Assembly (NCBI GenBank): GCA_905213725.1 | Contig: CAJMJM010000001.1 | Span: 577 to 64,576 of the forward strand | Length of the DNA stretch: 64,000 nt | Source: Collinsella aerofaciens | Lineage (GTDB): Bacteria; Actinomycetota; Coriobacteriia; Coriobacteriales; Coriobacteriaceae | Direction of reading: 5' to 3' | Part shown: positions 19,949 to 47,539 of the stretch, in pieces | Numbering within the stretch: position 1 is the stretch's first letter | How the letters are laid out: each line of letters starts with the position of its first letter | The notes under the pieces: generated by a model | The model's input: only the letters and a program-made list of their open reading frames with translations | Databases searched by the model: none | Told to the model about the DNA's origin: nothing | Translations under genes and position numbers: made by a program

Positions 19949-20108
19949 CAAAACTATGCCGGTTTACGGGGCTGAATTGACGCAGACCGATCATACCGGC
20001 ATTTTTCGAAAATAGACAAGCCGTCTACCTGCGGCTTTATTTTGCTCGAATTGCGCGTGGTTGGAGGCTCGCGATTCGGCCCCGTAAACCGGCATAGTTT
20101 TGAAATGG
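19949..20108. repeat. structured repeat family A (terminal IR AAACTATGCCGGTTTACGGGGC / GCCCCGTAAACCGGCATAGTTT), locus 1, reverse orientation
   Basis: About 160-bp element with 22-nt terminal inverted repeats and an internal hairpin GCCGTCTACCTGCGGC; copies at 40056-40215 and 47380-47539. Confidence 0.65.
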
Positions 20109-20192
20109 CCGGCATATATTGCTGTCGTCACTGATCTCAGAGGGCCGAAAGGATCCGTTTCCCCGTCCCTAAGCGGTCGCTGGGGATGCCCG

Positions 20193-20352
20193 CCACGAAA
20201 CCAGCCCATCTACTACGTTTAACCCGATACCTCCAACCATACCCGCGTTTTATGAAAAACCGCAGGCTCTCTACCTGCGGTTTTCTTTTTGCGTTGTTCG
20301 CTGTGGTTGGGGGTAGTGGCTTAAACGTAGTAGATGGGCGCTTTTCGTGGCA
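20193..20352. repeat. structured repeat family B (terminal IR CCACGAAA...CCCATCTACTACGTTTA / AAACGTAGTAGATGGG...TTTCGTGG), locus 1
   Basis: About 160-bp element with about 30-nt terminal inverted repeats and a central AAAACCGCAGG...CCTGCGGTTTT hairpin; copies at 40294-40463 and 47129-47288; flanked by inverted GGGGACGG(A/G)GAAAACGGATC(A/C)TTTT motifs at 20147-20169 and 20383-20408. Confidence 0.65.
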
Positions 20353-20425
20353 GATGCATTACGCAGGTATCCTCGGAGAGCCAAAATGATCCGTTTTCCT
20401 CCGTCCCCGGGGGATCATTTGGGGG

Positions 20426-21244
20426 TTAGAGCTCCAGGGTGAGGGTGACGGGGCAGTGGTCACTGCCGAAGATGTCGCCGCGGATGCCGGTGTCGCGTAC
20501 GTTGTCGGCGATTGCGTCGCTTACCAGGAAGTAGTCGATGCGCCAGCCTGCGTTGTTCTTGCGGGCATTAAAGCGGTAGCTCCACCAGCTGTAGACGCCC
20601 TCGACGTCCGGATTGGCCGCGCGCCAGGTGTCGGTAAAACCGGCGTCGAGCAGCTCGGTAAACTTGCCGCGCTCCTCGTCCGAAAAGCCGGCGTTGCCGC
20701 GGTTGGACTTGGGGTTCTTAAGGTCGATCTCCTCGTGCGCCACGTTAAAGTCGCCGCAGGTTACGACGGGCTTGCCGGTTTCGCGCTCAAGCGCGCTCAA
20801 AAAGCCGCGATAGGCATCGTCCCAGGCCATGCGCACGTCGATGCGGGCGAGTTCGTTTTGGGCGTTGGGCGTATAGACGTCGACAAACCAGAACTTGTCG
20901 AACTCGAGCGCGCAGACGCGGCCCTCGGTTGCGGCTTGGGCGACGAGCTCGGCAGCCCCACCCTCGCCGGCGTAGGGCAGCAGTGCATTGGCGTGCAGTA
21001 CGCGCAGCGGTTCCTGGCGGCTAAAGACCGCGGTGCCCGAGTAGCCCTTGCGCTCGGCGTAGCTCCAGGTTTGGTGATAGCCGGGCAGGTCGATATCGAC
21101 CTGGCCTTCCTGCAGCTTGGTCTCTTGCAGCGCCAGGATATCGACATCGAGCTCCTGTGCGATCTGGATAAAGCTCGGGTCTTTTTTGAGCACGGCGCGC
21201 AGGCCGTTGACGTTCCACGAGGCGAAAGTGTAAGTCTGAGGCAT
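20426..21244 (-). CDS. xth: exodeoxyribonuclease III
   Basis: 272 aa; ExoIII/APE motifs (SWNVNGLRA, LQETK, GDFNVAHEEIDL, SDHCPV). Confidence 0.9.
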   Translation of the reverse strand: MPQTYTFASWNVNGLRAVLKKDPSFIQIAQELDVDILALQETKLQEGQVDIDLPGYHQTWSYAERKGYSGTAVFSRQEPLRVLHANALLPYAGEGGAAELVAQAATEGRVCALEFDKFWFVDVYTPNAQNELARIDVRMAWDDAYRGFLSALERETGKPVVTCGDFNVAHEEIDLKNPKSNRGNAGFSDEERGKFTELLDAGFTDTWRAANPDVEGVYSWWSYRFNARKNNAGWRIDYFLVSDAIADNVRDTGIRGDIFGSDHCPVTLTLEL

Positions 21245-21357
21245 GGTGTCCTTTCGACGGAGTTGGCAGGCTTAAGATTAACGCAACAAGAGCGGGGCGG
21301 GGTCCGCGAGTGATAGTGCGAACGCCGCCGTCCCGGAGACACGGACGGAGGACATAT

Positions 21358-22110
21358 ATGACGCGGACAATATCGGACCCCAAACAGGCCTCCGCCGCGC
21401 TGGCGGAGCTGTTCGAAACCCATGGCCACGTGGTCTTCTTTGGCGGCGCGGGCGTATCCACGGCAAGCGGCATTCCCGATTTCCGCAGCGTGGACGGTCT
21501 GTATCACCAGCGGTTTTCCTATCCGCCCGAAACTATGCTCTCGCACAGCTTCTACGAGGCGCATCCGGCGGAGTTTTTCGACTTCTACCGGACCAAGATG
21601 ATCGCCCTTAACGCCAAACCCAACCACTGCCACGCCAAGCTGGCGGAGCTGGAGCGCGCCGGCAAGCTCGACGCCGTGGTGACGCAAAATATCGACGGCC
21701 TGCATCAGATGGCCGGATCGCAGCGCGTGTTCGAGCTGCACGGCTCGGTTCACCGCAATATCTGCCAGACGTGCGGCGCGGTCTACAGCGCCGAATGGAT
21801 TTGCGCGCGCGAGCACGAGGATGCCGCGGGCGTGCCCGTGTGCCCCGCATGCGGCGGTCGCATCAAGCCCGACGTGGTGCTCTACGAAGAGCCGCTCGAC
21901 GAGCGCGTGCTCACCGGCGCCGTCACTGCCATCGCCGCGGCCGACGCCCTCGTCGTGGGCGGAACCTCGCTGGTGGTATATCCGGCGGCGGGCCTCACGC
22001 GCTACTTTACCGGCGATACGCTGGCCATTTGCAATTTGGCTCCCACCGATCAGGACGCAAATGCCGACCTGCTGATTTCTTGCGACATCGCGGCCGCGTT
22101 TGCGTTCTAG
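21358..22110 (+). CDS. cobB: NAD-dependent protein deacylase (Sir2 family)
   Basis: Start at MTRTISD (ATG 21358); GAGVSTASGIPDFRS, Zn-ribbon CxxC...CPxCGG. Confidence 0.85.
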   Translation: MTRTISDPKQASAALAELFETHGHVVFFGGAGVSTASGIPDFRSVDGLYHQRFSYPPETMLSHSFYEAHPAEFFDFYRTKMIALNAKPNHCHAKLAELERAGKLDAVVTQNIDGLHQMAGSQRVFELHGSVHRNICQTCGAVYSAEWICAREHEDAAGVPVCPACGGRIKPDVVLYEEPLDERVLTGAVTAIAAADALVVGGTSLVVYPAAGLTRYFTGDTLAICNLAPTDQDANADLLISCDIAAAFAF

Positions 22111-22204
22111 CCCGCGCGCGCGGATACAATAGAAAGACTGATTGCAAAGCGACCCCGCCGCCAGCGCCCGAGCGCGGCGGCGTGGGCATTTTAGGAGGAT
22201 GTTC

Positions 22205-23932
22205 ATGGCGAACGACAGCAAGACATGGCGGTGCGGAAAGTACGAGCTCAGCTTTGACCGTCCGCGCATCATGGGCGTCCTCAACGTGACGCCCGATTCG
22301 TTTAGCGACGGCGGTGAGCACTTTGACCAGGATGCCGCTATCGAGTACGGCCTGGCGATGCTCGATGCCGGCGCCGACATCATCGACGTGGGCGGCGAGT
22401 CCACGCGCCCCGGCTTTACCCCGGTCAACCCGGACGAGGAAGCGCGTCGCGTGCTGCCCGTCGTGCGCGCGCTCGCCAAAGAGGGCGCCATCGTCTCGAT
22501 CGATACACGTCATGTGGCGGTTGCCAAGGCGGCTGTGCGCTGCGGTGCTTCGATTGTCAACGACGTGACGGGCTTCACCGATCCCAAAATGGTTGAGTTC
22601 GTTAAGACGAGCACCTGCGGCGTCATCGTAATGCACGCCGGCGAGGTCGCCGCACCCGCACGCACGCACGCGACGGTGCAGCTTGATACCTCGGCTGCGG
22701 CGTTTGTTGCTGAGAAGGCACGCGAAGCGGCTGCCGAGGCCGCGCGCGAGGCCGAGAAGCCGGCCCGTCGCCGTCGCGGCAAGTTGCTGGGCGAGCCCAG
22801 GGTTGAGGCCAAGCTTCCGGGCGGTGTGGTACAGCCCTCGCTGCCGTTTGGCGAATCGGAGCCCGCGCCCGAGTCCGAGCCGGAGACGCCGCCTGCCGAG
22901 CAGGCTGCCCCTGCCGCCGCTGCGCCCGAGACCGTGCCTGCAGCTACCGAAGCCGCGCCGGAGCCCAGCGACCACCTGGCCGCTATGATGCGCCGCAGCG
23001 CCCGTCGTGAGGAAGCCTATGTGCCCACCTCGCAGCTCCGTCGCTTTACCCTGCCCGATTCTGCGCCCATCATGCGCCGCGTCATGGGCTTTCTGTCCGA
23101 CCAGGCCCGCACGCACAATCATGCCGGCGTGTCGCGCGACCGTATCTGCATCGATCCCGGCCCGGGCTTAGGCAAGACGGCCAACGAAGACATCGTCATC
23201 CAGCGCGAGACCGCCAAGATGGCGTCGCTGGGCTATCCGCTCATGTGCGCCGTGTCGCGCAAGCGCTTTGTGGGCGCCGTCTCGGGCGTGACCGATGCCG
23301 CCGCGCGCGATGCCGCCACGTTTGGTGTGTGCCTGGGCGCCATCCAGGCCGGCGCCAACATCGTGCGCGTGCATGACGTTGCGGGCTTTGCGCAGTTCCT
23401 GAACGGTTACTGGGCCGTTGCCAAGCCGCAGCCGCGCCGCGCGATTGTGGCCGTGGGTTCCAACCTGGGGCATCGCTGCGACAACATTCGCGCTGCGCGC
23501 GACATGATTGCCGAGATCCCGCTCACCTGCGTGTCCAACTGCTCGCGCATCTACGAGAGCGAGCCGGCCTACGAGACACGCCAGGACGCGTTTGCCAACG
23601 CCGTCATCGAGATCAAGACCGAACTGGCTCCGTTGGTGCTGCTTGACGAGCTCATGAAGATCGAGGCCGAGCTGGGGCGCGACCGCTCCAAAAAGGCCAA
23701 GGCCAATGGCCCACGCACCATCGACTTGGACCTGCTGTGGATGGACGGCGAGACCCACGGCGGCAAAAAGCTGCGCCTGCCGCATCCGCTCATTGGCGAG
23801 CGAGACTTTGTGCTGGTGCCGCTTGAGGACCTGATGCACGACCCGGCGCGGTTCTTCCGCTACAACGGCGTCGAGGTCAAGGAGCCCGAGGATCGCGTGG
23901 GCCATATCGTGGGCGAATTGGGGCGTATGTAG
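22205..23932 (+). CDS. folP: bifunctional dihydropteroate synthase / HPPK (FolP-FolK fusion) with about 100-aa low-complexity insertion inside the DHPS barrel
   Basis: Start MANDSKTW 8 nt after AGGAGG; N-terminal DHPS motifs (IMGVLNVTPDSFSDGG, DIIDVGGESTRPG, IVNDVTGF, DPGPGLGKT, RVHDV) split by an A/E/P-rich insert (about aa 160-270); C-terminal HPPK (AIVAVGSNLG...TIDLDLLW...RDFVLVPL). Confidence 0.85.
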   Translation: MANDSKTWRCGKYELSFDRPRIMGVLNVTPDSFSDGGEHFDQDAAIEYGLAMLDAGADIIDVGGESTRPGFTPVNPDEEARRVLPVVRALAKEGAIVSIDTRHVAVAKAAVRCGASIVNDVTGFTDPKMVEFVKTSTCGVIVMHAGEVAAPARTHATVQLDTSAAAFVAEKAREAAAEAAREAEKPARRRRGKLLGEPRVEAKLPGGVVQPSLPFGESEPAPESEPETPPAEQAAPAAAAPETVPAATEAAPEPSDHLAAMMRRSARREEAYVPTSQLRRFTLPDSAPIMRRVMGFLSDQARTHNHAGVSRDRICIDPGPGLGKTANEDIVIQRETAKMASLGYPLMCAVSRKRFVGAVSGVTDAAARDAATFGVCLGAIQAGANIVRVHDVAGFAQFLNGYWAVAKPQPRRAIVAVGSNLGHRCDNIRAARDMIAEIPLTCVSNCSRIYESEPAYETRQDAFANAVIEIKTELAPLVLLDELMKIEAELGRDRSKKAKANGPRTIDLDLLWMDGETHGGKKLRLPHPLIGERDFVLVPLEDLMHDPARFFRYNGVEVKEPEDRVGHIVGELGRM

Positions 23933-24634
23933 ATGATTGAGATGAATGCTGTTGCCGCCGGTACCGAGCTCGACGCGGCGCGTGACGCGGGCCGCGAGGG
24001 CATGTCCGCGGGCTGGTGCGCGTGGAGCGCGGGCGAGGCGTCGTTGACGTTTTCGCTGGTCGTGCGCCCCGATGTGAACATGCATGCCTTCCACGGCCTG
24101 CCGTTTGTGGCCGCAATGGGCATGATGGACGCGCTCGCGGGCACGGCCGCAACGCCGGGCCTGGGGCTTGCCGGCAAAGTGGGCATCCAGTGGCCGAGTG
24201 ACATCGTGTGCGGCGCTCCTGCGTTTGAGACGTCGCTCGCGCGCGTCGCCGTCAACGGTGGTGCCGGTGCTGCGGGCATGTTTGCCGCGGTGACGGTTGA
24301 TGTTGAGCGTGCGGCGCTAGGCGAGCTCGGCGTGGATATGGCCGACGAGGTGCTGGTCGAGGTACTGGCCGCGGCGGTGCTCGCTCGCATTGACACCTGG
24401 GCGGTTGTCGCCAACACGCCACAGGGTGCTGCTGGTCCGTTGGCTCCCGTGCTGGGCGAGTACTTCGACATGGTGCCGCTGCTCGGTCGCCAAGTTGCGG
24501 CGGTGTCGCCCAACGGCTTGCCGCTCGCGGTCGGCGTGTTTGCGGGTCTGGACATCTGGGGTCGCGCAACCATTAAGACCGACGCCGGCGAGCAAGAGTT
24601 TCCGCCCGAGGCCGTGCGCATTCGCGGGCTGTAG
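23933..24634 (+). CDS. biotin--protein ligase-like catalytic-domain protein (BirA-like, no HTH)
   Basis: 233 aa; GKVGIQWPSDI resembles the BirA KWPND motif; weakly conserved; directly downstream of folP-folK. Confidence 0.45.
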   Translation: MIEMNAVAAGTELDAARDAGREGMSAGWCAWSAGEASLTFSLVVRPDVNMHAFHGLPFVAAMGMMDALAGTAATPGLGLAGKVGIQWPSDIVCGAPAFETSLARVAVNGGAGAAGMFAAVTVDVERAALGELGVDMADEVLVEVLAAAVLARIDTWAVVANTPQGAAGPLAPVLGEYFDMVPLLGRQVAAVSPNGLPLAVGVFAGLDIWGRATIKTDAGEQEFPPEAVRIRGL

Positions 24635-24671
24635 CGCGAGGCGCCAGCGCTCAAAGACAACGATGACAAGC

Positions 24672-24706
24672 GAAGCCCTCCTCGGCTGTGCCGGGGAGGG
24701 CTTTCG
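24672..24706 (+). terminator. hairpin after BirA-like gene
   Basis: AAGCCCTCC-loop-GGAGGGCTT stem; weak T-tract. Confidence 0.35.
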
Positions 24707-24728
24707 CGTGACTGCAGGGCGGCATCTC

Positions 24729-24776
24729 GGCCCTATTCCTCAAAACTGACAAATTTTCGTTTTTGAGGAATAGGGC
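24729..24776. repeat. perfect 17-bp-arm palindrome GGCCCTATTCCTCAAAA-N14-TTTTGAGGAATAGGGCC
   Basis: Read directly; 54 nt downstream of coaX stop; no U-tract on either strand. Confidence 0.5.
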
Positions 24777-24829
24777 CGATGCGTTGCCTAGGTCGCCGCT
24801 CGCGCTCGTGCTCGACTTAGGCCCCTGTC

Positions 24830-25603: not shown

Positions 25604-25799
25604 GTCTACTCCAGGTGTCGGCGTAAAAGGACGCGCACCATTGTATACGCGCCGCCGACAGTGCTCGGCTGCGATTCGTTTACGGTGATATGGGCTGAGG
25701 GGTTTAAATATGAAGGAATTATGCTCTACGAGATTTTCCTTGCCGTTTACCGAACTCCCGCGTAATATTCTTTCTTGCGCACATGAGGCGCCCAGACAT

Positions 25800-25876
25800 T
25801 GCGGGGTGGAGCAGTCTGGTAGCTCGCCGGGCTCATAACCCGGAGGTCGTAGGTTCAAATCCTGCCCCCGCGACCA
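25800..25876 (+). tRNA. initiator tRNA-fMet (anticodon CAT)
   Basis: 77 nt, near-identical to E. coli tRNA-fMet (TGCGGGGTGGAGCAGTCTGGTAGCTCGCCGGGCTCATAACCCGGAGGTCGTAGGTTCAAATCCTGCCCCCGCGACCA); three G-C pairs closing the anticodon stem (GGG/CCC) typical of initiators; position 1:72 is U.G rather than a Watson-Crick pair; CCA encoded. Confidence 0.85.
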
Positions 25877-25964
25877 AGAACTTGCAGCTCGTCGGTCTAG
25901 CCGGCGAGCTTTTTTGTTATTCCGGGACTGTTTTCTCAGCCCAATTTCCAGCCTCTCAAACAAA

Positions 25965-26264
25965 ATCTCGATCTGTAACATCTAGACCCGATTTGGGCGG
26001 TTATCTGTTACAGATCGAGATATACCGGTGGGTTGGGTCCCATTTGTCTAAATCTGTAACACGAGGGACGGATTTTGCCGAGTTGTTGTTACAGATTGAG
26101 ATTTTCTAGCAGACGGGTTTGGATTGTCTCGATCTGTAACAGGTAGGGGCCAAAAGTGGGGCTAGGTGTTACAGATCTAGATTGTTGAGGATGGGTCGAG
26201 ATGAATATCTTGATCTGTAACAGTAAGATCCGGTTTTGCTGTGTAACTGTTACAGATCGAGACA
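25965..26264. repeat. array of four stacked hairpins (stem about 16 bp (A/T)TCTCGATCTGTAACA / TGTTACAGATCGAGA(T), loops 23-27 nt), block 1
   Basis: Units at 25965-26021, 26046-26104, 26126-26181, 26206-26264; block 2 at 30789-31090 is about 85-90% identical including unit-specific loops. Confidence 0.65.
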
Positions 26265-26338
26265 TTTGGACGGAGCAGGTCCGAATATTCGATTCGAAAC
26301 ATGTCAGCAAGGCAGATACTAGGGAACTCTACTAGGCC

Positions 26339-26379
26339 GCCTCCCATTTCTTGGACATTAGAAATGGGAGGCTTCTTTA
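26339..26379 (+). terminator. plus-strand rho-independent terminator downstream of tRNA-fMet and hairpin block 1
   Basis: GCCTCCCATTTCT-loop-AGAAATGGGAGGC followed by TTCTTTA on the + strand only. Confidence 0.45.
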
Positions 26380-26468
26380 TGGACGGGAGAGTCAGGCACG
26401 ACCGCTCTCGGCCTTCACCCACCTCAACTGCTCCTCAATTACATAGAGCTGGTCGAAAAGGGCGCAAG

Positions 26469-27917: not shown

Positions 27918-27948
27918 TATTATCTCCTTAGTGATATTGCCCGGGCGG

Positions 27949-29442
<1,494 letters not shown>

Positions 29443-29497
29443 TCACGCGCCGGGCCCGTGGCCCCCTGATGCGCGCGGGCCGCCTGTGAAGGGATGA

Positions 29498-30475: not shown

Positions 30476-30788
30476 TAGGCTCCCTTCCGTCTGTTGTCTT
30501 GCAGACGCACATCTCGTGCGTCTGTTCCCTGCAGTCGGAAGGTGGGCTCGTGCGGTCCTCTGGCGGTGCATGTGGTACCTGCTGCCAAGACGAAAAAAGC
30601 CACGCAACCGACTGCTCGGTTGCGTGGCAAAAAGGTGGCTAGCGCCCAGAAAAGTCCACGCGTTTTTAGACGGAGACAAGGTACTACATCAGGTGAGATG
30701 CCGTCAAGAAAAGCCGAGGAAAAAAGTAGGTCTCTGCCCGCCGCACCTGTGGTGGTCGTTTCCCCGAACGGGGCGGTGCCGTTGGGGA

Positions 30789-31090
30789 CTGTCTCGATCT
30801 GTAACAGTTGGGGGCCAAAAGTGGGTCTAGATGTTACAGATTGAGATCTTTCCGCAGGCCGATTTCCGTTCATCTAAATCTGTAACACGAGGGACGGATT
30901 TTGCCGAGTAACTGTTACAGATTTAGATCTTTCGGCAGGCCAGATTGGTTTGTCTCGATCTGTAACAGGTGGAGGCCAAAAGTGGGTCTAGATGTTACAG
31001 ATCTAGATTGTTGGGGATGGGTCGAGAGGAATGTCTTGATCTGTAACAGTAAGACCCGGTTTTGCTGAGTAACTGTTACAGATCGAGACA
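30789..31090. repeat. array of four stacked hairpins, block 2 (direct repeat of block 1)
   Basis: Units at 30789-30848, 30870-30928, 30949-31007, 31031-31090 with the same TCTCGATCTGTAACA/TGTTACAGATCGAGA stems. Confidence 0.65.
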
Positions 31091-31230
31091 AACCGACGGG
31101 CCGCCCCGTCCCATCCACCTGCTGCTACCTGCTATCCGCCGATTTCCGTTGCGCTGTTGTATTCCCATGCCATATCCTCTAGACAACTACGCGGCATCAT
31201 CGCCGCCGCGCCTACAAGAGAGGAATGTCC

Positions 31231-33261: not shown

Positions 33262-33327
33262 TTAACTTCGCGGCCAGGCGGGGCGGTAGCACGGATCCGC
33301 CTCGCCCGACTGCGTCCCATCGGGTGT

Positions 33328-35155: not shown

Positions 35156-35164
35156 GCCGCACAG

Positions 35165-37174: not shown

Positions 37175-37186
37175 GAGGCGGCATCC

Positions 37187-38526: not shown

Positions 38527-38531
38527 GGTCC

Positions 38532-39620: not shown

Positions 39621-39627
39621 GCGCGGC

Positions 39628-39969
39628 ATGAGTTTACTGACATTTGCCAAGACGGCCTTAGGTTCTATGGTCAAGCAGCCGGTCACGGTGCGCTATCCGC
39701 AGGAGAAGCTGACGGCACCCGAGCGCTTGCGCGGGCATATCGTCAACGACATGGACGTGTGCATCTGCTGCGGCATGTGCGCGCGCCGCTGCCCGGCGGG
39801 CGCGCTCGCGGTCGATCGCAAGGGCGGTACCTGGTCGATCGACCCGTACGCTTGCGTGGTGTGCGGTGAGTGCATCGAGAGCTGCCCCAAGCACTGCCTG
39901 ACTATGGACACCGCCCGCACCCCAGTCGCAGCGGACAAGACTCCCACAGTAGAAACCAAACCGGAATAG
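39628..39969 (+). CDS. echF: Ech hydrogenase 2x[4Fe-4S] ferredoxin subunit (EchF/NuoI-like)
   Basis: CICCGMCARRCP and CVVCGECIESCP cluster motifs. Confidence 0.8.
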   Translation: MSLLTFAKTALGSMVKQPVTVRYPQEKLTAPERLRGHIVNDMDVCICCGMCARRCPAGALAVDRKGGTWSIDPYACVVCGECIESCPKHCLTMDTARTPVAADKTPTVETKPE

Positions 39970-40055
39970 CGCCGGAATAGAGCTGGAATAGGGGCCGGTG
40001 GGGCAAAAATGCCCCACCGGCCCCGCGCTTAAACGCGCGGCTGGGCCGCCGCAAA

Positions 40056-40215
40056 CAAAACTATGCCGGTTTACGGGGCTGGATGGCGAACCTCCGACCA
40101 TACGGAAAAACACAAAAACAAAACCGCAGGTAGATAGCCTGCCGTTTTTCAAAAAATGAGGGTATGGATGAGGGTCCCGACTTTTGCCCCGTAATCCGGC
40201 ATAGTTTTGAAATAG
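40056..40215. repeat. structured repeat family A, locus 2
   Basis: Same terminal IRs as 19949-20108; internal AAAACCGCAGGTAGATAGCCTGCCGTTTTT hairpin. Confidence 0.65.
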
Positions 40216-40293
40216 CACCATATCCGTAGAAGCCCTTGATCTCCCGTGGACAGAGGGAAACGGATCATTTTTGCCTTGCGAGGGCTGCCGCGT

Positions 40294-40463
40294 GACCCGT
40301 CTGCCACGAAATGGGCCTATCTACTACGTTTAGGCGGCAGCCCTCGACCACGTCAAGTAATGCGAAATGAAAACCGCAGGTAGAACGCTTGCAGTTTTTC
40401 ATGAAAAGCGGCTATGGTCGGGGGTATCGAGTCAAACGTAGTAGATGGCCCGATTTCGTGGCG
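40294..40463. repeat. structured repeat family B, locus 2
   Basis: Same terminal IRs as 20193-20352; flanked by GGGAAACGGATCATTTTT (40256-40273) and GGGGACGGAGGAAAACGGGTCATTTTT (40485-40511). Confidence 0.65.
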
Positions 40464-40687
40464 AGCGTTACCAACTGATTCCCCGGGGACGGAGGAAAAC
40501 GGGTCATTTTTGCCTGATGGCTCCGAGTCGCACCCGTTTTCCTGCGAAAACGCCGTGTCTCAACTTTGGTGAGACATTTGTCTCACGCCCAAAACCGAAT
40601 CTGGAACATGTGTCACCTGCCCTAATTGTATCTCATTCCGTAACTTTAGGCTGATGCAAGGTCTGAGCCTGCGAGAAGGGAGACACG

Positions 40688-42796
40688 ATGGGTAAGTACA
40701 CGAGGGGTCTCTTGGCGGTGATACTGGCCGTAGTGCTGGTGTTGCCAGCCGCAGCATTCGCCATGCTGCCCGAGGCCAACGCCAGGTCCAGCACAGGAAT
40801 GGACGGACCGATAATGACCGGAAAGGTCGCCGACCCCGACACCAGCGGTCGCTGGGAAATCTGGGCGGCAGGCCACGGTGGCAATAAGGTAACGACCCAA
40901 AACGTCGGTCGAATCTGGACCGACAAGACGGTCAAGGCAACCGAGGAAAACGAAGAGTCGGACTTTTTGACCACGCTTTCGGCGATGTCCTCGACGTCTA
41001 ATTCAACCGTGACGGTCACCACGCCGCTTGACATCGTGATGGTGCTGGATGCCTCTGGCTCGATGGATGATCCTATGGGTGGCGGAGATTCCACCAAGCG
41101 TATCGATGCACTGAAGAGCGCTGCGAACAGCTTTATCAATACCATTGCCAAGCAAAACGAGGGTATCGAGGGTGTCGATAGGCAGCACAGGGTTGCCATT
41201 GTTAAGTTTGCGGGTGATAAGACCAATAAGGTCGGCAATGACCAGTACAAGAAAGGGCAATTTTGGTACAACAACTCGCAGGTGATGAAGGGTTTGACCG
41301 ATTGCTCTGGCGGCAACGTGAAAGTTCTTGAGGATACAGTTGCTGGAATCAAACCAAGCGGTGCCACGCGTGCCGACTATGGTCTGGAACTGGCCGGGGA
41401 TATCACTTTTGGCCGCGCAGATGCCAAGAAGATCGTTGTGTTCTTTACCGACGGCAAGCCAACGAGCTTCAGCGAGTTTGATTCTGACGTCGCCAAGGGT
41501 GCCGTGACGGCTGCCAAGAAGATGAAGGATGGCAAAGCCACCGTTTATACCATCGGCATCTTTAGTGGAGCGGACCCCGCTGACGATCCCTCGAAAGAGG
41601 GGACAAGCGACGTCAACAAGTTTATGCACGCCGTGTCGAGTAATTATCCCGATGCCACGTCGTATGCGAGCGCCAAGCTTGGCACACGCGCGGAAAACTC
41701 CGACTACTACAAGTCGGCGACCAACGCCGAAGAGCTCAAGAAGGTCTTCGACGACATCTCACAGGCCATCACATCGGAGGCGCCTTATCCGACCGAAATC
41801 CATAAGGGCTACGACGAGACCAAGTCCGGCTACATTACGTTTACCGACGAGCTGGGCGACTTTATGCAGGTCGACGGATTTACCGAAGTCGTCATCAACG
41901 GCACGCCGTTTACCGAGGCGAGCAAGACGTTCAACAAAGAAACCAATACCGACACATACGAGTTCACCGGCAAGGCAAAAGACCTGCTCATCACCGTGCA
42001 GCGTGCTGGCGCTGACAATCCCCAGAAGGGCGATATCGTAACGGTTAACATTCCTGCGTCGTTGATTCCGCTGAGCCACTTTAAGACCGTAGACGGCAAG
42101 CTTTCGGTCGACAACGCTAAGCCCATTCAGGTGAAGTATGCCTCGAGCGTGAAGAGCGCCGCACTTGACAACCTGTTTACGCCCGAGAAGGTCACGGGGC
42201 TCAAGGACTACATCGAGCATAATACGACTGTCGTTGACGGCACCAAGACCGTGAGCTTCTACGCGAACAAGTGGAGCGGTGGTGCGTTGGGTGATACGGT
42301 TGCGACCTTTGAGCCGGCCGACACCAACCGCTACTACTACTTCCAGAAGCAGACTCCCATTTACACGGACAAGGACTGCACACAGCCTGCAAAGAATTCG
42401 CTGACAGATACTGGCACCTATTACTACAAGGATGAGTTTGAGGAGCAGGGCGAGAACGGCGAGGCCAAGCCCGCCACTGCCGTCATCGAGTTTATCGGCG
42501 GCGACGCTGCCAAGTTTGACGGCGCTATTGTTGCCGACAAGGACGGCAACCTTTCGTTTAGCGTGGGAACCGCGCGTCTGGCCTTTATCGACGAGCTCCA
42601 CACCACCAAGGGCAGCGTGGGCGGCAACAGCACTGGTACCGCGACCGACGTTCTCAACCCCAAATGGAACAACGTGTCCGCCAAGGCGGCTGCGACGCAT
42701 GTCAATTCCTATCTGGGCAACAACGGCAAGATCAGCTTTGCGTATGACATGACGCCGGCAATGGTGAACACCAAGGCCAGCTTTGGTCTAACCTAG
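40688..42796 (+). CDS. surface adhesin, N-terminal part: signal peptide, VWA domain with MIDAS motif, Ig-like region; ends at in-frame TAG
   Basis: Signal peptide MGKYTRGLLAVILAVVLVLPAAAFA; DASGSMDD MIDAS; ORF ends FGLT-TAG exactly at the isopeptide-Lys position of a SpaA-type domain; no cell-wall anchor in this ORF. Confidence 0.75.
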   Translation: MGKYTRGLLAVILAVVLVLPAAAFAMLPEANARSSTGMDGPIMTGKVADPDTSGRWEIWAAGHGGNKVTTQNVGRIWTDKTVKATEENEESDFLTTLSAMSSTSNSTVTVTTPLDIVMVLDASGSMDDPMGGGDSTKRIDALKSAANSFINTIAKQNEGIEGVDRQHRVAIVKFAGDKTNKVGNDQYKKGQFWYNNSQVMKGLTDCSGGNVKVLEDTVAGIKPSGATRADYGLELAGDITFGRADAKKIVVFFTDGKPTSFSEFDSDVAKGAVTAAKKMKDGKATVYTIGIFSGADPADDPSKEGTSDVNKFMHAVSSNYPDATSYASAKLGTRAENSDYYKSATNAEELKKVFDDISQAITSEAPYPTEIHKGYDETKSGYITFTDELGDFMQVDGFTEVVINGTPFTEASKTFNKETNTDTYEFTGKAKDLLITVQRAGADNPQKGDIVTVNIPASLIPLSHFKTVDGKLSVDNAKPIQVKYASSVKSAALDNLFTPEKVTGLKDYIEHNTTVVDGTKTVSFYANKWSGGALGDTVATFEPADTNRYYYFQKQTPIYTDKDCTQPAKNSLTDTGTYYYKDEFEEQGENGEAKPATAVIEFIGGDAAKFDGAIVADKDGNLSFSVGTARLAFIDELHTTKGSVGGNSTGTATDVLNPKWNNVSAKAAATHVNSYLGNNGKISFAYDMTPAMVNTKASFGLT

Positions 42797-45700
42797 GTGC
42801 TCGAGGGGCGCGACTGGACGAATGCTGACGCGTTTGAGTTTGGCCTGACATCCGAGAGCGGCGCCCCGATGCCTGCGGCTAGGACTGCGACCGTGCGCAA
42901 GGCTGACCTGGACCAGGGCAAGGCTGCCATCGACTTCGGCACGATCGAATACACCGAACCTGGCACGTACGTCTACAAGGTCAGTGAAAAGCATGCCGGG
43001 ACCACGAATGACGGCATCGCCTACAGCAAAAACGTCGCGGAGAACACCGTGACGGTAACGCCCGACAAGGAGGGCGAGCTCAGCGCCGCTGTGAAGGTGG
43101 CCTGGAGTGAAGCCGAAGTGACCGAGTTCAAGAACGTCTACGCTGCGGATCCTGTTGAGTCCAGCGTTACCGACCAGATTACCGTGGCCAAGTCCCTGAC
43201 CGGGCGCGACTTGACGGAAGGCGAGTTCAGTTTTGAGCTGCGCGAGGTTAAGGGCGAGGACTCTGAGCTTATCGAGACCGTTGCGAACGCCGCCGACGGC
43301 AAGGTGACGTTCAGCACCATCAAGTACACCGAGATCGGCCAGCACACCTACATGCTGCGTGAGGTCAAGGGCGACGCCGGTGGCATTACCTATGACGATA
43401 CGATCTACACTGTCGTGACGACCATTGCCGATAACGGCAAGGGCCAGCTGGCCGCTACGCACGAGCTGAAGGGCGCCAAGGACGTCAAGAGCATCGAGTT
43501 CAAGAACGCCTACACCACAAATGCTGCCGAGGCATCGCTTACGGGCATCAAGAACCTGCAGGTCGCCGACGGCTTGACCCCGGCTGACATTGCCGGCAAG
43601 TTCACCTTTACCGTGACCGGTGAAGAGGGCGCACCCATGCCCGCGAACGCGAGTGTGACCAATGATGCCAAGGGCAAGGTCGACTTTGGCAAGATTACCT
43701 TTACGCTCGACGACCTTAACAAGGCTCTGGGCGAGAAGCCCGAGAAGCGCGAGCACACCTTTACCTACACCGTGACCGAGTCCGGCGAGGTCGCTGGCGT
43801 GACCAACGACGCCAAGCTGTCGCGCGAGGTTTCCTTCACCGTGACTGATGACGGCAAGGGCAATCTGAGCGTATCCCACAAGCCGGACGGCGATGTGGCA
43901 TTTACGTTCACCAATACCTATAACGTGACGCCTGTCGAGACGAGCGTCACCGACCAGATTACCGCGACCAAGGTCCTGACCGGGCGCGAGCTTGCTGCCG
44001 GCGAGTTCTCCTTCGAGCTCGTCGAGGGCGAGGGCGAGGACGCCAAGGTTATCGCCACCGGCACTAACGCCGCCGATGGCAAGATCACGATGAGCGCCGT
44101 GAAGTACACCAAGGCCGGAACGCACGCCTACACGCTGCGCGAGGTCAAGGGCGGAACCATCAGCAAGGGCGTCACCTACAGCGATGCCGAGTACACCATC
44201 GAGACCACCATCACGGACAACGGCGACGGTACGCTCAGCGCCACGCATGTTCTGAAGGACGACGTCAAGGCTGCAACTTTCGAGAACGCTTACAGCGTGA
44301 CCCCGCTCGACGCAGAGTTCGACTTTGGCCTGGGCAAGGCCATCGACGGTCGCGACTGGACGGACTCCGACAAGTTCAGCTTTACCATTACCGCTTCCGA
44401 GGGCACCCCGCTGCCCGATCCCGCAACCGTAACCGTGAGTAAGAAGGACGCGAAGGACGGCATCGCCGCCATCAAGTTCGGCAAGATCCACTACACGGCT
44501 GCCGGAACCTACAAGTATGAGATCCGCGAGAACGCGGGTAATACGGTCGGCATGACGTATGACTCCCACGTCGCGACCGCCGAAGTAACCGTGACCGAGG
44601 ACGGCGATGGCAACCTGACCGCCAACGTCACCAAGAAGGAAAACGGACGCTTTACCAACACGTACCGCACTGAGCTTAACTACACCGCGGCCGGCGGTCT
44701 GTGGCTCAGCAAGTATCTGGACGGCCGCCCCATGACCGAGGGCCAGTTCACCTTTACCGTGACACCTGCTGACGACGCTTCGGCTCGCGCGCTCGGTCTG
44801 CTGCCCGGGGCCAACAGCTTCAAGTCTCCCGAAGCGGCAGAGGCAACGGTCGGACTGATCGACATTCTGGCTGGTCATGAGGTTAAATTTACGCAGGCTG
44901 ACGCCGGCAAGACCTTCAAGTACACCGTGGCCGAAAAGAACGACGGCCAGCCCGGTTACACCTACGATGACGCCGTACGCACGGTGACGATCGCCATCGC
45001 CGACGACACCGCCGGTACGCTCACTGCTACGACGACCGTTTCCGGTGGTCCCGAGGGCACGCATGAGACGGTCCACAAGAGTGGCGAGAACAAGGTCGAG
45101 AAGGCCCTGGTGCCGTTCCACAACAGTTACAGCGCTACGACCAACACGCCTGGCGGCACCGCCGCTCAGGTCGTTGCCACCAAGACTCTGACCGGCCGCC
45201 CGATGGCCGACGGCGAGTTCTGGTTCGGCATCGCCTATCAGGGTGAGCTTGTGGCATACGAAAACCTCAAGCCCAATATCGGCGGGCACGTGAGCTTTGA
45301 TACGCTGCACTACGACACTAAGATGCTTGCTAATCTTGAGGCTGCTGGGCTTGCCCATCGTACCGACAAGGACGGTAAGCTTGCCTGGACCATTAACTAC
45401 ACGGCCTACGAAGATTTATTCGGGCTGCCGAATGGCGTTTCCGCTACAACGTGGAGCTTTGGCTTTAAGGTTATCGTCGTCGACAACGGTGACGGTACCC
45501 TGACGGCGACGGTCGACTACGGCGGCGTCGAGCCCTTGTTCGAGAACGTCTACGGCGCCGACGCCGTGGATGCCGCGCTCACCGGTACTAAGAAGCTCCA
45601 GGTTGCCGAGGGCCTGACCCCGGCCGACATCACGGGTAAGTTCACCTTTACCGTGACCGCCGACGAGGCAGGTGCCCCGATGCCCGAGCGCACGACCGTA

Positions 45701-46987
45701 ACCAACGACGCAGCCGGTAACGTGGACTTTGGCAAGATCCACTTTACGCTCGAGGACCTCAACCGCGCTCTGGGCGTGACGGACGATGCGACCGATAAGG
45801 CCGAGGCGGACGAAGCTGACGAGGCCGAGGCCGACGAGGCAGAGGCTGAAGAGGCCGACCCCGCCGCTGACGCCAATGTCGACGAGTCCGAGCCTGCGGC
45901 CCCCACCGCTCCGCGCTCGCACACCTTTGCCTATACGGTGACCGAGACCGGCAGCGCCCCTGGCGTGACCAACGATGCCAACGCCACGCGCAAGGTTTCC
46001 TATACCGTGACTGACGACGGCGCCGGACATCTGAGCGTCGTGCGCAACGGCGACGACGGTGCGGCCTTCACATTCATCAACACCTACAGCGTAACGCCCA
46101 CCGACTCTGTCGTGACCGATCAGGTCAAGACGGTCAAGCGTCTGACCGGACGCGACCTTGCAGCCGGCGAGTTCACGTTTGATCTGCTCGAGGACGGCGT
46201 GGTTGTCGCTAGCGGCACCAACGACGCCAACGGCACTGTGACACTGAGCCCGATCCGCTACGAGGCGCCCGGCACGCACACGTACACGCTGCGCGAGGCT
46301 TGCCCCAATGCGCTCGGCCTGTACAAGGGCGTCACCTATGCCGGTACGACCTACACCGTCGTGGCCACCGTCTCTGACAACGGCGATGGCACACTGGCCG
46401 TGACGCACAAGCTCGAGGGAACCACCGAGTCGGCTGGTTTTACCAACAAGTATCACGCCATGCCCACCCAAGTCTCCATCGGCGCCATCAAGGTGCTCGA
46501 GGGACGCGAGCTCAAGAAGGACGAGTTCAGCTTTAAGCTCGTTGGCGAGGGCATCGAGTCCACCGTCACCAACGATGCCGACGGTAAGATCAGCTTCGAC
46601 AAGTTTGAGTACGACGAGCCCGGTACGCACGTCTACACCATCAGCGAAGTCAAGGGCGACGAGGCCGGTATGACCTACGACAAGTCCGTCTTTACCGCGA
46701 CCGTCAACGTGGTCGATGACGGCGAGGGCAACCTCAAGGCGAACGTCGCCTTTACCAAGGGCGACAGGAGCGTCGAGGGTATCGTGTTCAACAACACGTA
46801 CAAGAAGCCCGAGACTCCTACGCCGACACCCGATCCCGGCACGCCCAAGACCGTGACGAACATCGTCAAGACGGTCAAGGGTTTCCTGCCCACCACGGGC
46901 GACCAGCAGGCTGCCGCTCTGCTTATGGCATTTGTCATCGCCATGGCCGGCGTCGGAGCCCTGGTCTGGGGTATCCGTAAGCGCTAG
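42797..46987 (+). CDS. surface adhesin, C-terminal part: about 9 SpaA/Spy0128-type isopeptide (CnaB-like) domains, acidic linker, LPXTG anchor
   Basis: Same frame as 40688-42796; repeated (A/V/I)xK(V/S)L(T/E)GR(D/E)L...EFSF(E/K)L...NxxDGK(V/I)xF..IxYxxxGTHxYxxxE domains; LPTTG at 46886-46900 followed by hydrophobic helix and RKR; no signal peptide of its own. Confidence 0.8.
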   Translation: MLEGRDWTNADAFEFGLTSESGAPMPAARTATVRKADLDQGKAAIDFGTIEYTEPGTYVYKVSEKHAGTTNDGIAYSKNVAENTVTVTPDKEGELSAAVKVAWSEAEVTEFKNVYAADPVESSVTDQITVAKSLTGRDLTEGEFSFELREVKGEDSELIETVANAADGKVTFSTIKYTEIGQHTYMLREVKGDAGGITYDDTIYTVVTTIADNGKGQLAATHELKGAKDVKSIEFKNAYTTNAAEASLTGIKNLQVADGLTPADIAGKFTFTVTGEEGAPMPANASVTNDAKGKVDFGKITFTLDDLNKALGEKPEKREHTFTYTVTESGEVAGVTNDAKLSREVSFTVTDDGKGNLSVSHKPDGDVAFTFTNTYNVTPVETSVTDQITATKVLTGRELAAGEFSFELVEGEGEDAKVIATGTNAADGKITMSAVKYTKAGTHAYTLREVKGGTISKGVTYSDAEYTIETTITDNGDGTLSATHVLKDDVKAATFENAYSVTPLDAEFDFGLGKAIDGRDWTDSDKFSFTITASEGTPLPDPATVTVSKKDAKDGIAAIKFGKIHYTAAGTYKYEIRENAGNTVGMTYDSHVATAEVTVTEDGDGNLTANVTKKENGRFTNTYRTELNYTAAGGLWLSKYLDGRPMTEGQFTFTVTPADDASARALGLLPGANSFKSPEAAEATVGLIDILAGHEVKFTQADAGKTFKYTVAEKNDGQPGYTYDDAVRTVTIAIADDTAGTLTATTTVSGGPEGTHETVHKSGENKVEKALVPFHNSYSATTNTPGGTAAQVVATKTLTGRPMADGEFWFGIAYQGELVAYENLKPNIGGHVSFDTLHYDTKMLANLEAAGLAHRTDKDGKLAWTINYTAYEDLFGLPNGVSATTWSFGFKVIVVDNGDGTLTATVDYGGVEPLFENVYGADAVDAALTGTKKLQVAEGLTPADITGKFTFTVTADEAGAPMPERTTVTNDAAGNVDFGKIHFTLEDLNRALGVTDDATDKAEADEADEAEADEAEAEEADPAADANVDESEPAAPTAPRSHTFAYTVTETGSAPGVTNDANATRKVSYTVTDDGAGHLSVVRNGDDGAAFTFINTYSVTPTDSVVTDQVKTVKRLTGRDLAAGEFTFDLLEDGVVVASGTNDANGTVTLSPIRYEAPGTHTYTLREACPNALGLYKGVTYAGTTYTVVATVSDNGDGTLAVTHKLEGTTESAGFTNKYHAMPTQVSIGAIKVLEGRELKKDEFSFKLVGEGIESTVTNDADGKISFDKFEYDEPGTHVYTISEVKGDEAGMTYDKSVFTATVNVVDDGEGNLKANVAFTKGDRSVEGIVFNNTYKKPETPTPTPDPGTPKTVTNIVKTVKGFLPTTGDQQAAALLMAFVIAMAGVGALVWGIRKR

Positions 46988-47065
46988 GCACGCTGGCAGC
47001 GCCCGGGGCCAGAAGGCCCCGGGCGGCCGGCGGGGAGCCAGAACATAGCCCCACCCCCAGCCCCA

Positions 47066-47106
47066 GCCGCCACGGAGGTATCTCCCTCCTCCGTGGCGGC
47101 GCTTTT
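47066..47106 (+). terminator. rho-independent terminator after adhesin gene
   Basis: GCCGCCACGGAGG-loop-CCTCCGTGGCGGC followed by GCTTTTGTG. Confidence 0.55.
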
Positions 47107-47128
47107 GTGCGTAGGCGAGAAGGGTTCG

Positions 47129-47288
47129 CCACGAAACCGGCCCATCTACTACGTTTAGCCCCTTACCCCCAACCATGCCGAAAAGCGCAAAAACAAAACC
47201 GCAGGTAGAACGCCTGCGGTTTTGTTCAAAACGAAGGTATGGTCAGGGGTATCGAGTCAAACGTAGTAGATGGGCCGATTTCGTGGCG
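47129..47288. repeat. structured repeat family B, locus 3
   Basis: Near-identical right end to locus 2 copy (GGGGTATCGAGTCAAACGTAGTAGATGGGCCGATTTCGTGGCG); followed by GGGGACGGAGGAAAACGGCTCATTTT at 47310-47335. Confidence 0.65.
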
Positions 47289-47379
47289 GGCGGTTTCGGC
47301 TGATCCATTGGGGACGGAGGAAAACGGCTCATTTTGGTCCCGCGAGGCTGGCGGAGACACTCGTGCAGGGCCGCCCGAA

Positions 47380-47539
47380 CAAAACTATGCCGGTTTACGG
47401 GGCTAAGTCACGCGCTCCCAACCATGCCGATATCCGTGAAAATAAAACCGCAGGTAGACAAGCCGTCATTTTACGGAAAACGCGGGTATGGATGGGGGCC
47501 CTGAGCTTAGCCCCGTAAACCGGCATAGTTTTGAAATGG
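47380..47539. repeat. structured repeat family A, locus 3
   Basis: Same terminal IRs; internal AAAACCGCAGGTAGACAAGCCGTC. Confidence 0.65.

Follow-up and report, generated by a model that had tools for sequence, protein, structure and literature searches.

Palindromic mosaic repeats of Collinsella and the variable adhesin operon that they flank

ERIC elements (also called IRUs), which occur in Enterobacteriaceae and Vibrio, are imperfect palindromes of ~127 bp present in tens of copies per genome. To our knowledge, neither a transposase nor a target duplication is known for them, and the question of what maintains such enterobacterial palindromes is still unanswered. Other short repeats form mosaics. 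The BIMEs of E. coli combine REP (or PU) palindromes of 20-40 nt, whose copy numbers reach hundreds, with specific linker motifs, and the REPIN, an inverted doublet of ~70-110 nt, has a cognate RAYT (Y1 transposase) gene flanked by the repeats. The neisserial NIMEs consist of RS units bounded by dRS3, a short inverted repeat that is also an integration target of phages and IS110-type elements; they flank variable surface-protein genes and have been proposed to promote the exchange of the intervening genes. Correia elements (~100-155 bp, with 26-bp terminal repeats) carry a duplicated TA target and lack full-length palindromy, and the pneumococcal BOX elements are built from boxA, boxB and boxC modules. 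In integrons, each cassette carries one attC site with R''/L''...L'/R' boxes (GTTRRRY), and the intI integrase gene lies nearby.

The genus Collinsella is abundant and very diverse in the human gut, and differences among its strains have been linked to host phenotypes. Here, we followed up a sequence-only reading of 64,000 nt of Collinsella aerofaciens DNA (the window), which had proposed two families of structured repeats, A and B, at three loci, two of them flanking an adhesin cassette. Both kinds were found at these loci in three copies each, A with a length of 154 nt and B with 162 nt (the terminal YG...CR counted in), every copy being a palindrome over nearly its full length. The six elements and their surroundings are as follows.

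19156-19902, plus strand: ECF S-component gene, whose 3' end flanks A1 on one side
19949-20102, minus strand: A1, palindromic element of 154 nt whose asymmetric core is on this strand
20146-20172, minus strand: C', a degenerate C motif (GGGACGGGGAAACGGATCCTTT) in the B1-A1 spacer
20191-20352, minus strand: B1, palindromic element of 162 nt with its core on the minus strand
20383-20408, minus strand: C motif (GGGGACGGAGGAAAACGGATCATTTT), directly 3' of the xth stop codon
20426-21244, minus strand: xth, whose 3' end flanks the A1/B1 locus on the other side
39628-39969: ferredoxin gene, upstream of A2
40056-40209, plus strand: A2, palindromic element of 154 nt, 3' of the ferredoxin terminator hairpin
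40246-40271, plus strand: C' motif with 3 mismatches, left copy of the C duplication around B2
40302-40463, plus strand: B2, palindromic element of 162 nt
40485-40510, plus strand: C motif, right copy bracketing B2, with the adhesin promoter region next
40688-46987, plus strand: variable cargo, one surface adhesin gene (VWA + 10x FctA, isopeptide-domain)
47068-47110: terminator hairpin of the adhesin gene, immediately before B3
47127-47288, plus strand: B3, palindromic element of 162 nt, 78% identical to B2
47310-47335, plus strand: C motif in the interval between B3 and A3
47380-47533, plus strand: A3, palindromic element of 154 nt, facing the 3' end of the response regulator gene
47594-48223, minus strand: LuxR-type response regulator gene
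19951/20079, 40058/40186 and 47382/47510: paired terminal repeats of A1, A2 and A3
20205/20322, 40316/40433 and 47141/47258: paired terminal repeats of B1, B2 and B3

In the window, six occurrences of the A terminal repeat AAACTATGCCGGTTTACGGGGC form three inverted pairs (chance expectation 0.00), and the B terminal repeat CCCATCTACTACGTTTA is likewise present six times (0.02 expected). The core AAACCGCAGGTAGA is common to all six elements, and nine matches to it were counted in the window at no more than 2 mismatches, against 0.27 expected. The third short motif that had been noticed five times beside B, here called C, measures 26 nt and is present in four good copies and a fifth, degenerate one (20146-20172); the copy next to xth is also found at the same site in strains without A and B. 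The A, B and C repeats of the window are not attributable to chance. The first locus had been described as a reversed A followed by B. A does lie on the minus strand, but so does the core of B, and read on that strand the order is C-B-C'-A. The direct repeats expected around the adhesin from the A-B...B-A arrangement are present, with 77% identity over 221 nt for B plus C (40290-40510 and 47115-47335) and 75% over 180 nt for A (40054-40233 and 47378-47557).

Alignments reveal that A, B and a hybrid form, A', have one inner core in common, CRACCA...AAAACCGCAGGTAGA; their basal stems differ, and all of them pair. From its foot to its tip, an element consists of a basal stem, a variable zone that pairs poorly, a conserved ACCAY/RTGGT helix, an A/T-rich internal loop and an apical hairpin. 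The basal stem, which corresponds to the terminal inverted repeat, is perfectly paired over 20-31 bp and has at least three sequence types (A, A' and B); the inverted termini measure 22 nt in A and 31 nt in B. The apical hairpin resembles a bidirectional terminator, and its 5' half, AAAACCGCAGGTAGA, is conserved in sequence on one strand only. It should be noted that core conservation in B is circular, since the B sample was gathered with a pattern containing the core; the evidence for conservation beyond the search pattern is that of 25 unselected A copies only, missed by the pattern, in which the apex keeps ~95-100% conservation in its 5' half and has eroded in its 3' half. Elsewhere, roughly one copy in two has a degraded 3' arm. 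In B3, the stem comprises 11 bp (AAAACCGCAGG/CCTGCGGTTTT), and a terminator scan detected the apical hairpins of A2, on both strands, and of B2. With a G+C-rich stem-loop and a T-run on both strands, the apex is a predicted bidirectional intrinsic terminator.

Length is strictly kept, at 154 nt in 50 of 53 distinct A copies and 161-162 nt in all 91 distinct B copies, and copies at different sites share 69% (A) and 73.5% (B) identity. Neither a 3-base periodicity nor a frame that stays open was found, and A and B are non-coding. A small reading frame in B and the C motif (M-x-RFPPSP...) was considered and rejected, as its ATG is not conserved, periodicity is absent and the frames are mostly closed.

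As the sequence-only reading had suggested, each of the six elements folds as a single long hairpin, on either strand. The RNA folds have free energies between -70 and -113 kcal/mol (z-scores between -8 and -16), and the single-stranded DNA folds have z-scores of -12.7 (B3) and -6.3 (A2). RNAalifold at default settings returned almost no consensus on large alignments, and we therefore counted pairs explicitly; simple mirror pairing runs out of register at the element centre. In A, 85.6% of the cells are paired, compared to 33-43% when the partners are slid, and in B the values are 80% and ~40%. The covariation check proposed for the copies was also positive: double-sided changes in A number 117 against 68+-9 in shuffles, none of the 500 shuffles attaining the observed value, and the compensatory switches include U-A/A-U at 27:17, with five pairs differing between A and A'. 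Such covariation is not proof of selection on the hairpin, since template switching that corrects quasipalindromes can produce compensatory change mechanically.

From the window alone, the three loci can also be read as a purely local duplication without a wider family. This explanation has next to no chance and is refuted by the distribution of the repeats, which proved to be a dispersed family: the core pattern was found in at least 120 genome stretches with ~20 distinct flanking contexts, all but two of them labelled Collinsella or Coriobacteriaceae, and the remaining two carry Collinsella flanks. Using nhmmer, we obtained ~200 elements (124 B, 57 A and ~20 hybrid A'), counts that are not independent since many loci are orthologous. 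The comparison genomes are mostly metagenome assemblies. The density is estimated at roughly one cluster per 100 kb. Viral contigs had host-flank copies only, beside tRNA genes or prophage ends, and 78 single B-end matches are due to chance. In the literature on repeats of Collinsella and Coriobacteriia, we came across no repeat family described for this genus. A catalogue of structured RNAs from microbiomes (PMC8040213) names Collinsella for other motifs only, and the core sequence is absent from the supplements searched. The palindromic repeat family is probably specific to the genus Collinsella.

A and B had been thought to occur always as a pair; this holds in the window, but across the Collinsella sample roughly every second B copy stands alone, and solitary A, A-B-A' triplets and hybrid A' also occur. 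The arrays seen are A, A-B, B-A, A-B-A' and B+D, where D is an unrelated 70-nt palindrome present in the linkers of other genomes. The composite, REP/BIME-like build that had been suspected is visible in the spacers between units, which are fixed at 89-103 bp and contain the C motif. The distance from C to B is ~30 nt where C is on the left and 20-30 nt where it is on the right, C shares the orientation of the core in every case, and only 3 of 88 C copies are more than 150 nt away from any A or B. B-A gaps of ~1.3-1.45 kb were taken up as candidate transposase loci and rejected, the gene inside being that of an M24 peptidase. The arrays are mainly located beyond gene terminators, most of the elements flank ordinary housekeeping genes, and a Pfam screen of 90 distinct neighbouring proteins returned transporters and metabolic enzymes. 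No clear bias in orientation relative to the flanking genes was observed with the crude gene calls (GC3 filter) made in the comparison loci; at tandem sites, the B core is sense to the upstream gene in 14 cases and antisense in 9.

Compared with the described systems, ERIC and the Collinsella elements are both palindromic over nearly their full length, non-coding, intergenic and 120-160 bp long, with a conserved central region. The likeness is architectural only. No sequence relationship is apparent, the host belongs to another phylum (Actinomycetota, Coriobacteriia), and unlike ERIC, the Collinsella elements have at least three basal-stem types around one core and form arrays with a linker motif. 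In BIMEs and REPINs, as in Collinsella, arrays of extragenic palindromes and linkers form regular mosaics that expand and contract, hairpin units evolve as wholes and no target duplication is known. The unit itself differs from REP and REPIN in size, being a single palindrome of 154-162 nt, and in the position of GTAG, which is the 5' foot of the hairpin in REP, whereas the sole conserved GTAG of the Collinsella elements lies in the apical loop. Modular arrays whose units have short inverted repeats at their ends, a position beside variable surface-protein genes and a proposed role in exchanging the genes in between are shared with NIMEs. The fixed spacers, the fixed position and orientation of C and the variable number of modules thus place the arrays with mosaics of the BIME/NIME type, a likeness of kind and not of shared ancestry. 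The TA duplication of Correia elements, which are of similar size, and the phage and IS110-type integration at dRS3 were not found for the Collinsella elements. BOX elements are likewise modular, non-coding intergenic composites with a stable predicted fold, a variable number of modules and Gram-positive commensal hosts of gut or airway, but their sequences and module logic are different and their modules are not each complete palindromes.

Module content differs between close strains. In ten strains with an identical response regulator protein, one site carries A'-B, A-B or A' alone, while the other carries B-A, A alone or B alone. B2 and one C copy are absent from the same site in four genomes (L077, L110, L027 and L041); the 239-nt difference between filled and empty sites corresponds to linker, B, linker and one of the two C copies. 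At the other site, the B-less allele retains the last 10 nt of B. Presence/absence is common; one site has its breakpoints in the 40-nt duplicated C motif, another inside the B end. At the A3 site, near-identical strains have an inverted A' variant within the same terminal repeats. Near-identical copies at unrelated sites were considered as signs of recent movement and mostly proved to be orthologues with small indels in their flanks. Only L105 was a genuine case, for which conversion between the two arrays flanking the adhesin is the better explanation, and mosaic B2/B3 patterns such as that of L105 indicate gene conversion.

Direct B-C repeats bound the 6.6-kb adhesin block, whose adhesin gene is interrupted in this window by an in-frame TAG (42794-42796). 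That these repeats delimit a variable segment is shown by six Collinsella genomes that have the same two neighbouring genes, no adhesin operon and one B only, in the order ferredoxin gene - A - C' - B - C - A' - response regulator gene. In these genomes, the single B follows B2 until its last columns, and B3-type flanks come next; the left flank is that of B2 and the right flank that of B3. The endpoints of the deletion or insertion of the operon fall inside the directly repeated B-C module. The event may be old or may have taken another route, since the 78% identity of B2 and B3 is low for efficient RecA-mediated crossover.

Given their short length, absence of coding signal, inverted termini of 22-31 nt, uniform size, many dispersed sites and presence/absence among close strains, A and B could be classic MITEs, i.e., non-autonomous elements derived from an insertion sequence by deletion, with a DDE transposase acting in trans by binding their termini. 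This reading, offered earlier, was not borne out on closer inspection and is decidedly unlikely. No direct repeat of 2-9 nt was found outside the element ends in 44 (A) and 76 (B) distinct flank combinations, whatever the offset or length, and the highest scores for 2 and 3 nt stem from offsets that reach into the conserved termini. In 1.1 Mb of Collinsella DNA, all terminal repeats belong to complete short elements, with neither solitary or widely spaced termini nor a longer parent, and no transposase family recurs among the 90 neighbouring proteins. Moreover, the termini of A, A' and B differ while the interior core is common, the opposite of the pattern expected if a transposase recognised the ends; the divergence of 26-31% between copies at separate sites speaks against a recent burst; and the indel endpoints sit in repeats and vary by site. 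A dedicated recombinase, for which the elements would be recognition sites (site- or hairpin-specific, in the manner of integron attC or IS110, with crossover in C or B), would account for the movement of cassettes, for the C copies on both sides of B and the single C at empty sites, for the B-C on both sides of the adhesin operon and the single B-C in operon-less genomes, for the conserved, asymmetric apex, and for a second cassette of the window with the same geometry and another repeat. We nevertheless hold it to be very improbable: no recombinase gene recurs beside the elements, the lone serine recombinase (L011) is a prophage gene by a tRNA gene, and no tyrosine integrase is among the matches listed (the best 25 of 133 families, for 90 neighbouring proteins). 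The endpoints also vary, from C-C at one site to the inside of the B end at another, most elements lie beside housekeeping genes, and neither attC-type R/L boxes nor a GTTRRRY core could be seen by eye.

A family of structured RNAs had also been suggested, and transcription of the elements, as mRNA 3' ends or as independent small RNAs acting as terminator, 3'-exonuclease barrier or regulatory RNA (roles reported for ERIC, REP and BOX), would agree with the very stable fold and its compensatory changes, the terminator-like apical stem and T-run on both strands, the one-strand conservation of the apex and the strict length. Positive support was not obtained, and we consider this unlikely. Rfam returned a tRNA as the sole match at the gathering threshold over the whole window and nothing at E<=5 over 39900-47700, and a scan of the two adhesin loci found no promoter-like site in the elements. 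The arms contain 334 G-U and 316 A-C cells, so that neither strand is favoured, and the orientation of the core to the upstream gene is mixed at tandem sites. Close strains lack individual modules, and the elements of loci 2 and 3 follow the upstream genes' own strong terminator hairpins, whereas ERICs have been described inside transcribed regions.

We favour, with moderate confidence, the explanation that A and B are old, constrained palindromic mosaic repeats resembling ERIC, BIME and NIME, which at present change by recombination between modules. The selected form would be a single-stranded or extruded hairpin whose apex is recognised by a protein, and the family may have had a mobile origin and spread in the past by hairpin-dependent copying without target duplication. 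Today, the arrays would be altered by homologous exchange, gene conversion or slippage between direct repeats, short or long, across the hairpin, which would add or remove modules and cargo such as the adhesin operon. There is a slim chance that the elements are instead working hairpin sites, in which the apex AAAACCGCAGGTAGA, mounted on an interchangeable basal stem, is read by a Collinsella protein in single-stranded DNA or RNA and cassettes are exchanged through C. The candidate reader would be an HUH/Y1-type or IS110-type recombinase, or a factor for priming or termination like those of plasmid single-strand origins; specificity would come from the two internal loops, which are variable and lie between conserved helices, and C-linked modules would swap surface adhesin and sugar-uptake blocks between strains. 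Under the favoured explanation of old mosaic repeats, elements that are length-stable, have interchangeable stems and a one-strand apex and lack a transposase offer a clean case of what maintains ERIC-like palindromes.

The Collinsella elements lie exactly at the breakpoints where a pilus-like adhesin operon varies between strains, and a second, unrelated repeat does likewise for a sugar-uptake block. Repeats at such breakpoints are handles in strain typing, in the search for accessory cassettes in metagenomes and in making sense of misassemblies. The second repeat is a four-unit palindromic array that flanks a PTS/GH1/EamA block in the same window. Strains without this block have a single copy of the flanking array, and the arrays are an independent parallel to the adhesin flanks.

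The six elements of the window belong to two palindromic repeat types, A and B, whose refined lengths are 154 and 162 nt, respectively. They occupy three loci and share terminal and direct repeats as follows.

19949-20352: locus 1, A1 and B1, by the ECF S-component gene and xth
40056-40463: locus 2, A2 and B2, after a ferredoxin gene
47127-47533: locus 3, B3 and A3, before a response regulator gene
22-nt A end: six occurrences, forming three inverted pairs; chance expectation 0.00
17-nt B end: six occurrences, forming three inverted pairs; chance expectation 0.02
40290-40510 versus 47115-47335: direct repeat of B plus the 26-nt linker motif C, 221 nt, 77%, flanking the adhesin block (repeat detection)
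40054-40233 versus 47378-47557: direct repeat of A, 180 nt, 75%, flanking the adhesin block (repeat detection)

The core AAACCGCAGGTAGA is present in all six elements. RNA folding gave one long hairpin per element on either strand, with free energies between -70 and -113 kcal/mol, 8 to 16 SD below shuffled sequences (z -8 to -16), and folding as single-stranded DNA gave z-scores of -12.7 for B3 and -6.3 for A2. The terminal inverted repeats at three loci and the single long stem-loop proposed by the sequence-only reading were both recovered. Motif C, said to accompany B five times, has four good copies and one degenerate copy. At locus 1, described as A reversed and then B, both elements are indeed present, and one detail needed correcting: orientation can be read from the asymmetric core only, and the cores of both, not of A alone, lie on the minus strand, where the order is C-B-C'-A (C' being a weaker copy of C). 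The C motif itself is a small hairpin (20371-20422; 40471-40513): its stem is (A)TGATCC...GGATCA(T), its 19-nt loop contains GGACGGAGGAAAAC, and TTTT follows.

One genome per species was scanned with the pattern CRACCA-N14-AAANNAAARCCGCAGGTAGA, which is matched by all six window copies. At least 120 genome stretches matched, and all but two of the matches listed carry a Collinsella or Coriobacteriaceae label. In the two exceptions, labelled 'Alloprevotella' sp. (L023) and 'Bulleidia' sp. (L050; L-numbers denote other loci, mostly on Collinsella contigs, fetched for comparison), the flanks of B are common with Collinsella loci (L127 for the former; L124, L097 and L107 for the latter), and both contigs are probably mis-binned Collinsella DNA rather than cases of transfer. 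Moreover, a profile search of 1.1 Mb of fetched DNA recovered about 200 elements: B was the commonest type with 124 copies, A followed with 57, and about 20 copies belonged to a hybrid, A', in which the outer 18 nt of A are joined to a B-like inner stem, TACTACGATGAA. Two of the fetched loci lie on large contigs, in GCA_046116875.1 and GCA_964261755.1. The repeats therefore form a dispersed, genus-wide family in Collinsella rather than a duplication confined to the window. The flanks of ascertained matches contain a further cluster roughly every 100 kb, which suggests some tens of copies per genome, although this estimate is rough and biased.

Adjacent elements are always 89-103 bp apart. The claim that A and B always occur as a pair holds within the window but not outside it, where roughly one B in two stands alone, A can also be solitary, and A-B-A' triplets occur. 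Solitary B in other species is flanked by a C variant, CAGTCTTTTTGGGACGGGGCTTTTTTGGCTGC, which has only GGGACGG(A/G)G in common with the C motif of the window. Copies on contigs labelled viral lie in host flanks adjoining tRNA genes. For example, in L011 (205-860) B lies between two tRNA genes, and a gene for a large serine recombinase comes directly after (minus strand, 828-2312), a setting that places B on the host side of a prophage integration site. It should be noted that identical copies of the xth protein (20426-21244) are encoded on many human-gut metagenome contigs.

A, A' and B can be aligned without gaps across their full length. They have in common the ACCAY and RTGGT boxes, two A/T-rich internal loops and an apical hairpin, AAAACCGCAGG-TAGANNG-CCTGCGGTTTT; the basal 20-31 bp differ in sequence between types and are completely paired in each. 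By pair counting, 85.6% of cells are paired in A, compared to 33-43% when partners are slid, and double-sided changes number 117 against 68 ± 9 in shuffles, the observed value being reached in none of 500. Among the clear compensatory switches are U-A/A-U at 27:17 and, between A and A', changes in five consecutive pairs. In B the corresponding figures are 80% of cells paired and about 40% when partners are slid, and the excess over shuffles is smaller. Pairing is only 40-50% in the zone from the basal stem to the ACCAY box. Given that palindromes can self-correct by template switching, covariation is weaker evidence here than for an ordinary RNA.

Identity between copies at different sites is 69% for A and 73.5% for B, and rises to 88% and 93%, respectively, between orthologous copies. 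Length is nearly constant, with exactly 154 nt in 50 of 53 distinct A copies and 161 or 162 nt in all 91 distinct B copies, and sequences this diverged would hardly be so free of indels if they were decaying junk. Neither 3-base periodicity nor a frame open in most copies was found, which marks the elements as non-coding. In the 25 A copies that fall outside the search pattern, the 5' half of the apex, AAAACCGCAGGTAGA, is ~95-100% conserved and the 3' half often decayed; this asymmetry is stated for A alone, the B sample having been selected on that same motif. Overall, three features point to selection for a hairpin form whose tip may be recognised: basal stems that are exchangeable yet always paired, the scarcity of indels and an apex motif conserved on one strand.

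The arrays vary between strains. Upstream of the adhesin gene (40688-46987, plus strand), L077, L110, L027 and L041 carry A or A' followed by a single C, whereas the window, L051 and L103 carry A-C'-B-C. The filled and B-less alleles differ by 239 nt, consisting of linker, B, linker and one C, so B is bracketed by a duplicated motif of ~40 nt; the crossover point lies directly after TCATTTTTGCC. Downstream of the adhesin gene, L139 and L141 lack B except for its last 10 nt, TTTCGTGGCA, and their breakpoints fall in the short similarity TTTTGTG/TTTCGTG. In ten strains whose response regulators are identical, the downstream array is A'-B, A-B or A' alone, and the upstream array is B-A, A alone or B alone. 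L140 matches the window exactly through B3 and 19 nt into A; an inverted A' then replaces the interior of A, and the two sequences rejoin at the opposite terminal repeat. In L001 and L005, the xth/ECF site carries C and then an unrelated palindrome of 70 nt, D (GTTGCGGTGGAATAGTTC...), in place of B and A.

L001, 10875-10945: D element (AAGTTGCGGTGGAATAGTTC...GAACTATTCCACCGCAAGTT, ~70 nt), at the site equivalent to window 19903-20425

D is absent from the window and was found next to solitary B in 25 fetched loci.

These observations are best accounted for by a new family of interspersed repeats, specific to the genus, which are palindromic along their whole length and combine into mosaic arrays; no earlier description of it was found in the literature. 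The family is broader and more modular than could be seen from the window. ERIC elements are the nearest known system in architecture, and BIME and NIME arrays in modular organisation and behaviour. The likeness to MITE/REP composites noted earlier stands as far as mosaic arrays are concerned. Classic MITEs are quite improbable, as no target-site duplication was found, no longer parent turned up in the 1.1 Mb (all terminal repeats there lie in complete short elements) and, above all, the types share their interior and differ at their ends. A functional RNA or RNA gene, suggested by apical hairpins that score terminator-like in a scan of the two adhesin loci, is unlikely: Rfam gave no family at the gathering threshold or at E<=5, and G-U and A-C are equally frequent among arm cells of B (334 and 316), so neither strand is favoured as RNA. 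Moreover, no promoter-like site was found within the elements of the two adhesin loci, and at loci 2 and 3 they are positioned past strong terminator hairpins of the upstream genes.

The geometry of the duplications might also be ascribed to a dedicated recombination system acting at the elements. However, indel endpoints vary from site to site, which argues against a single precise excision reaction, and no transposase or recombinase recurred among the families listed (the first 25 of 133) for the 90 distinct proteins whose genes lie within 3 kb of an element (transporters, metabolic enzymes and similar), so we regard such a system as very improbable. The varying endpoints favour recombination or slippage between the direct repeats flanking the hairpin. 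A gene enclosed by B and A at gaps of ~1.3-1.45 kb was considered and rejected; it encodes an M24 peptidase.

The cargo between loci 2 and 3 codes for a surface protein in which a VWA domain is combined with ten FctA (isopeptide) domains. In the window, an in-frame TAG (42794-42796) interrupts the gene, leaving ORFs of 702 and 1396 residues; the stop could be a sequencing error, strain variation or the mark of a pseudogene. Ten related strains have the gene uninterrupted, as one ORF of 1945-2455 residues, its length tracking the number of FctA domains. In L079, L089, L064, L111, L100 and L087, the ferredoxin and response regulator genes face each other across A-B-A' or B-A' alone. B was aligned from these adhesin-less genomes apart from L087. 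The single B of L079, L089, L064 and L111 is 90-94% identical to B2 and B3-like only in the last diagnostic columns; in three of these four, as aligned, the left flank is that of B2, and the C motif and right flank are B3-type. In L100, and in L055 with the same array, B mixes B2-like and B3-like columns. A B2-like B with a B3-type right flank indicates, as judged from these alignments, that the adhesin indel is bounded by the directly repeated B-C module, and these single-B genomes lend support to the repeat-flanked cassette put forward by the sequence-only reading. Deletion through a crossover between B2-C and B3-C would yield the single-B arrangement, as would the integration, at a B already present, of a segment that itself carries B; either direction fits. 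B2/B3 mosaics occur elsewhere too: in L105 (1555-1962), downstream of the adhesin gene, B is B3-like in its left part and B2-like in its right part, and the next A is 92% identical to upstream-site (A2-type) copies, which suggests gene conversion between the two adhesin-flanking arrays.

A second repeat array, unrelated to A and B, lies on both sides of a 4.5-kb PTS EIIBC / GH1 / EamA block.

25800-25873: tRNA gene (Rfam score 63 bits), directly upstream of the second array
25960-26273 and 30786-31099: second array, four palindromic units (TCGATCTGTAACA...TGTTACAGATCGA) with an 81-bp period

With the same geometry, it is an independent parallel to the adhesin block. The array is single in L001 and L005, both without the PTS/GH1/EamA block, and has six units in L003 and L006.
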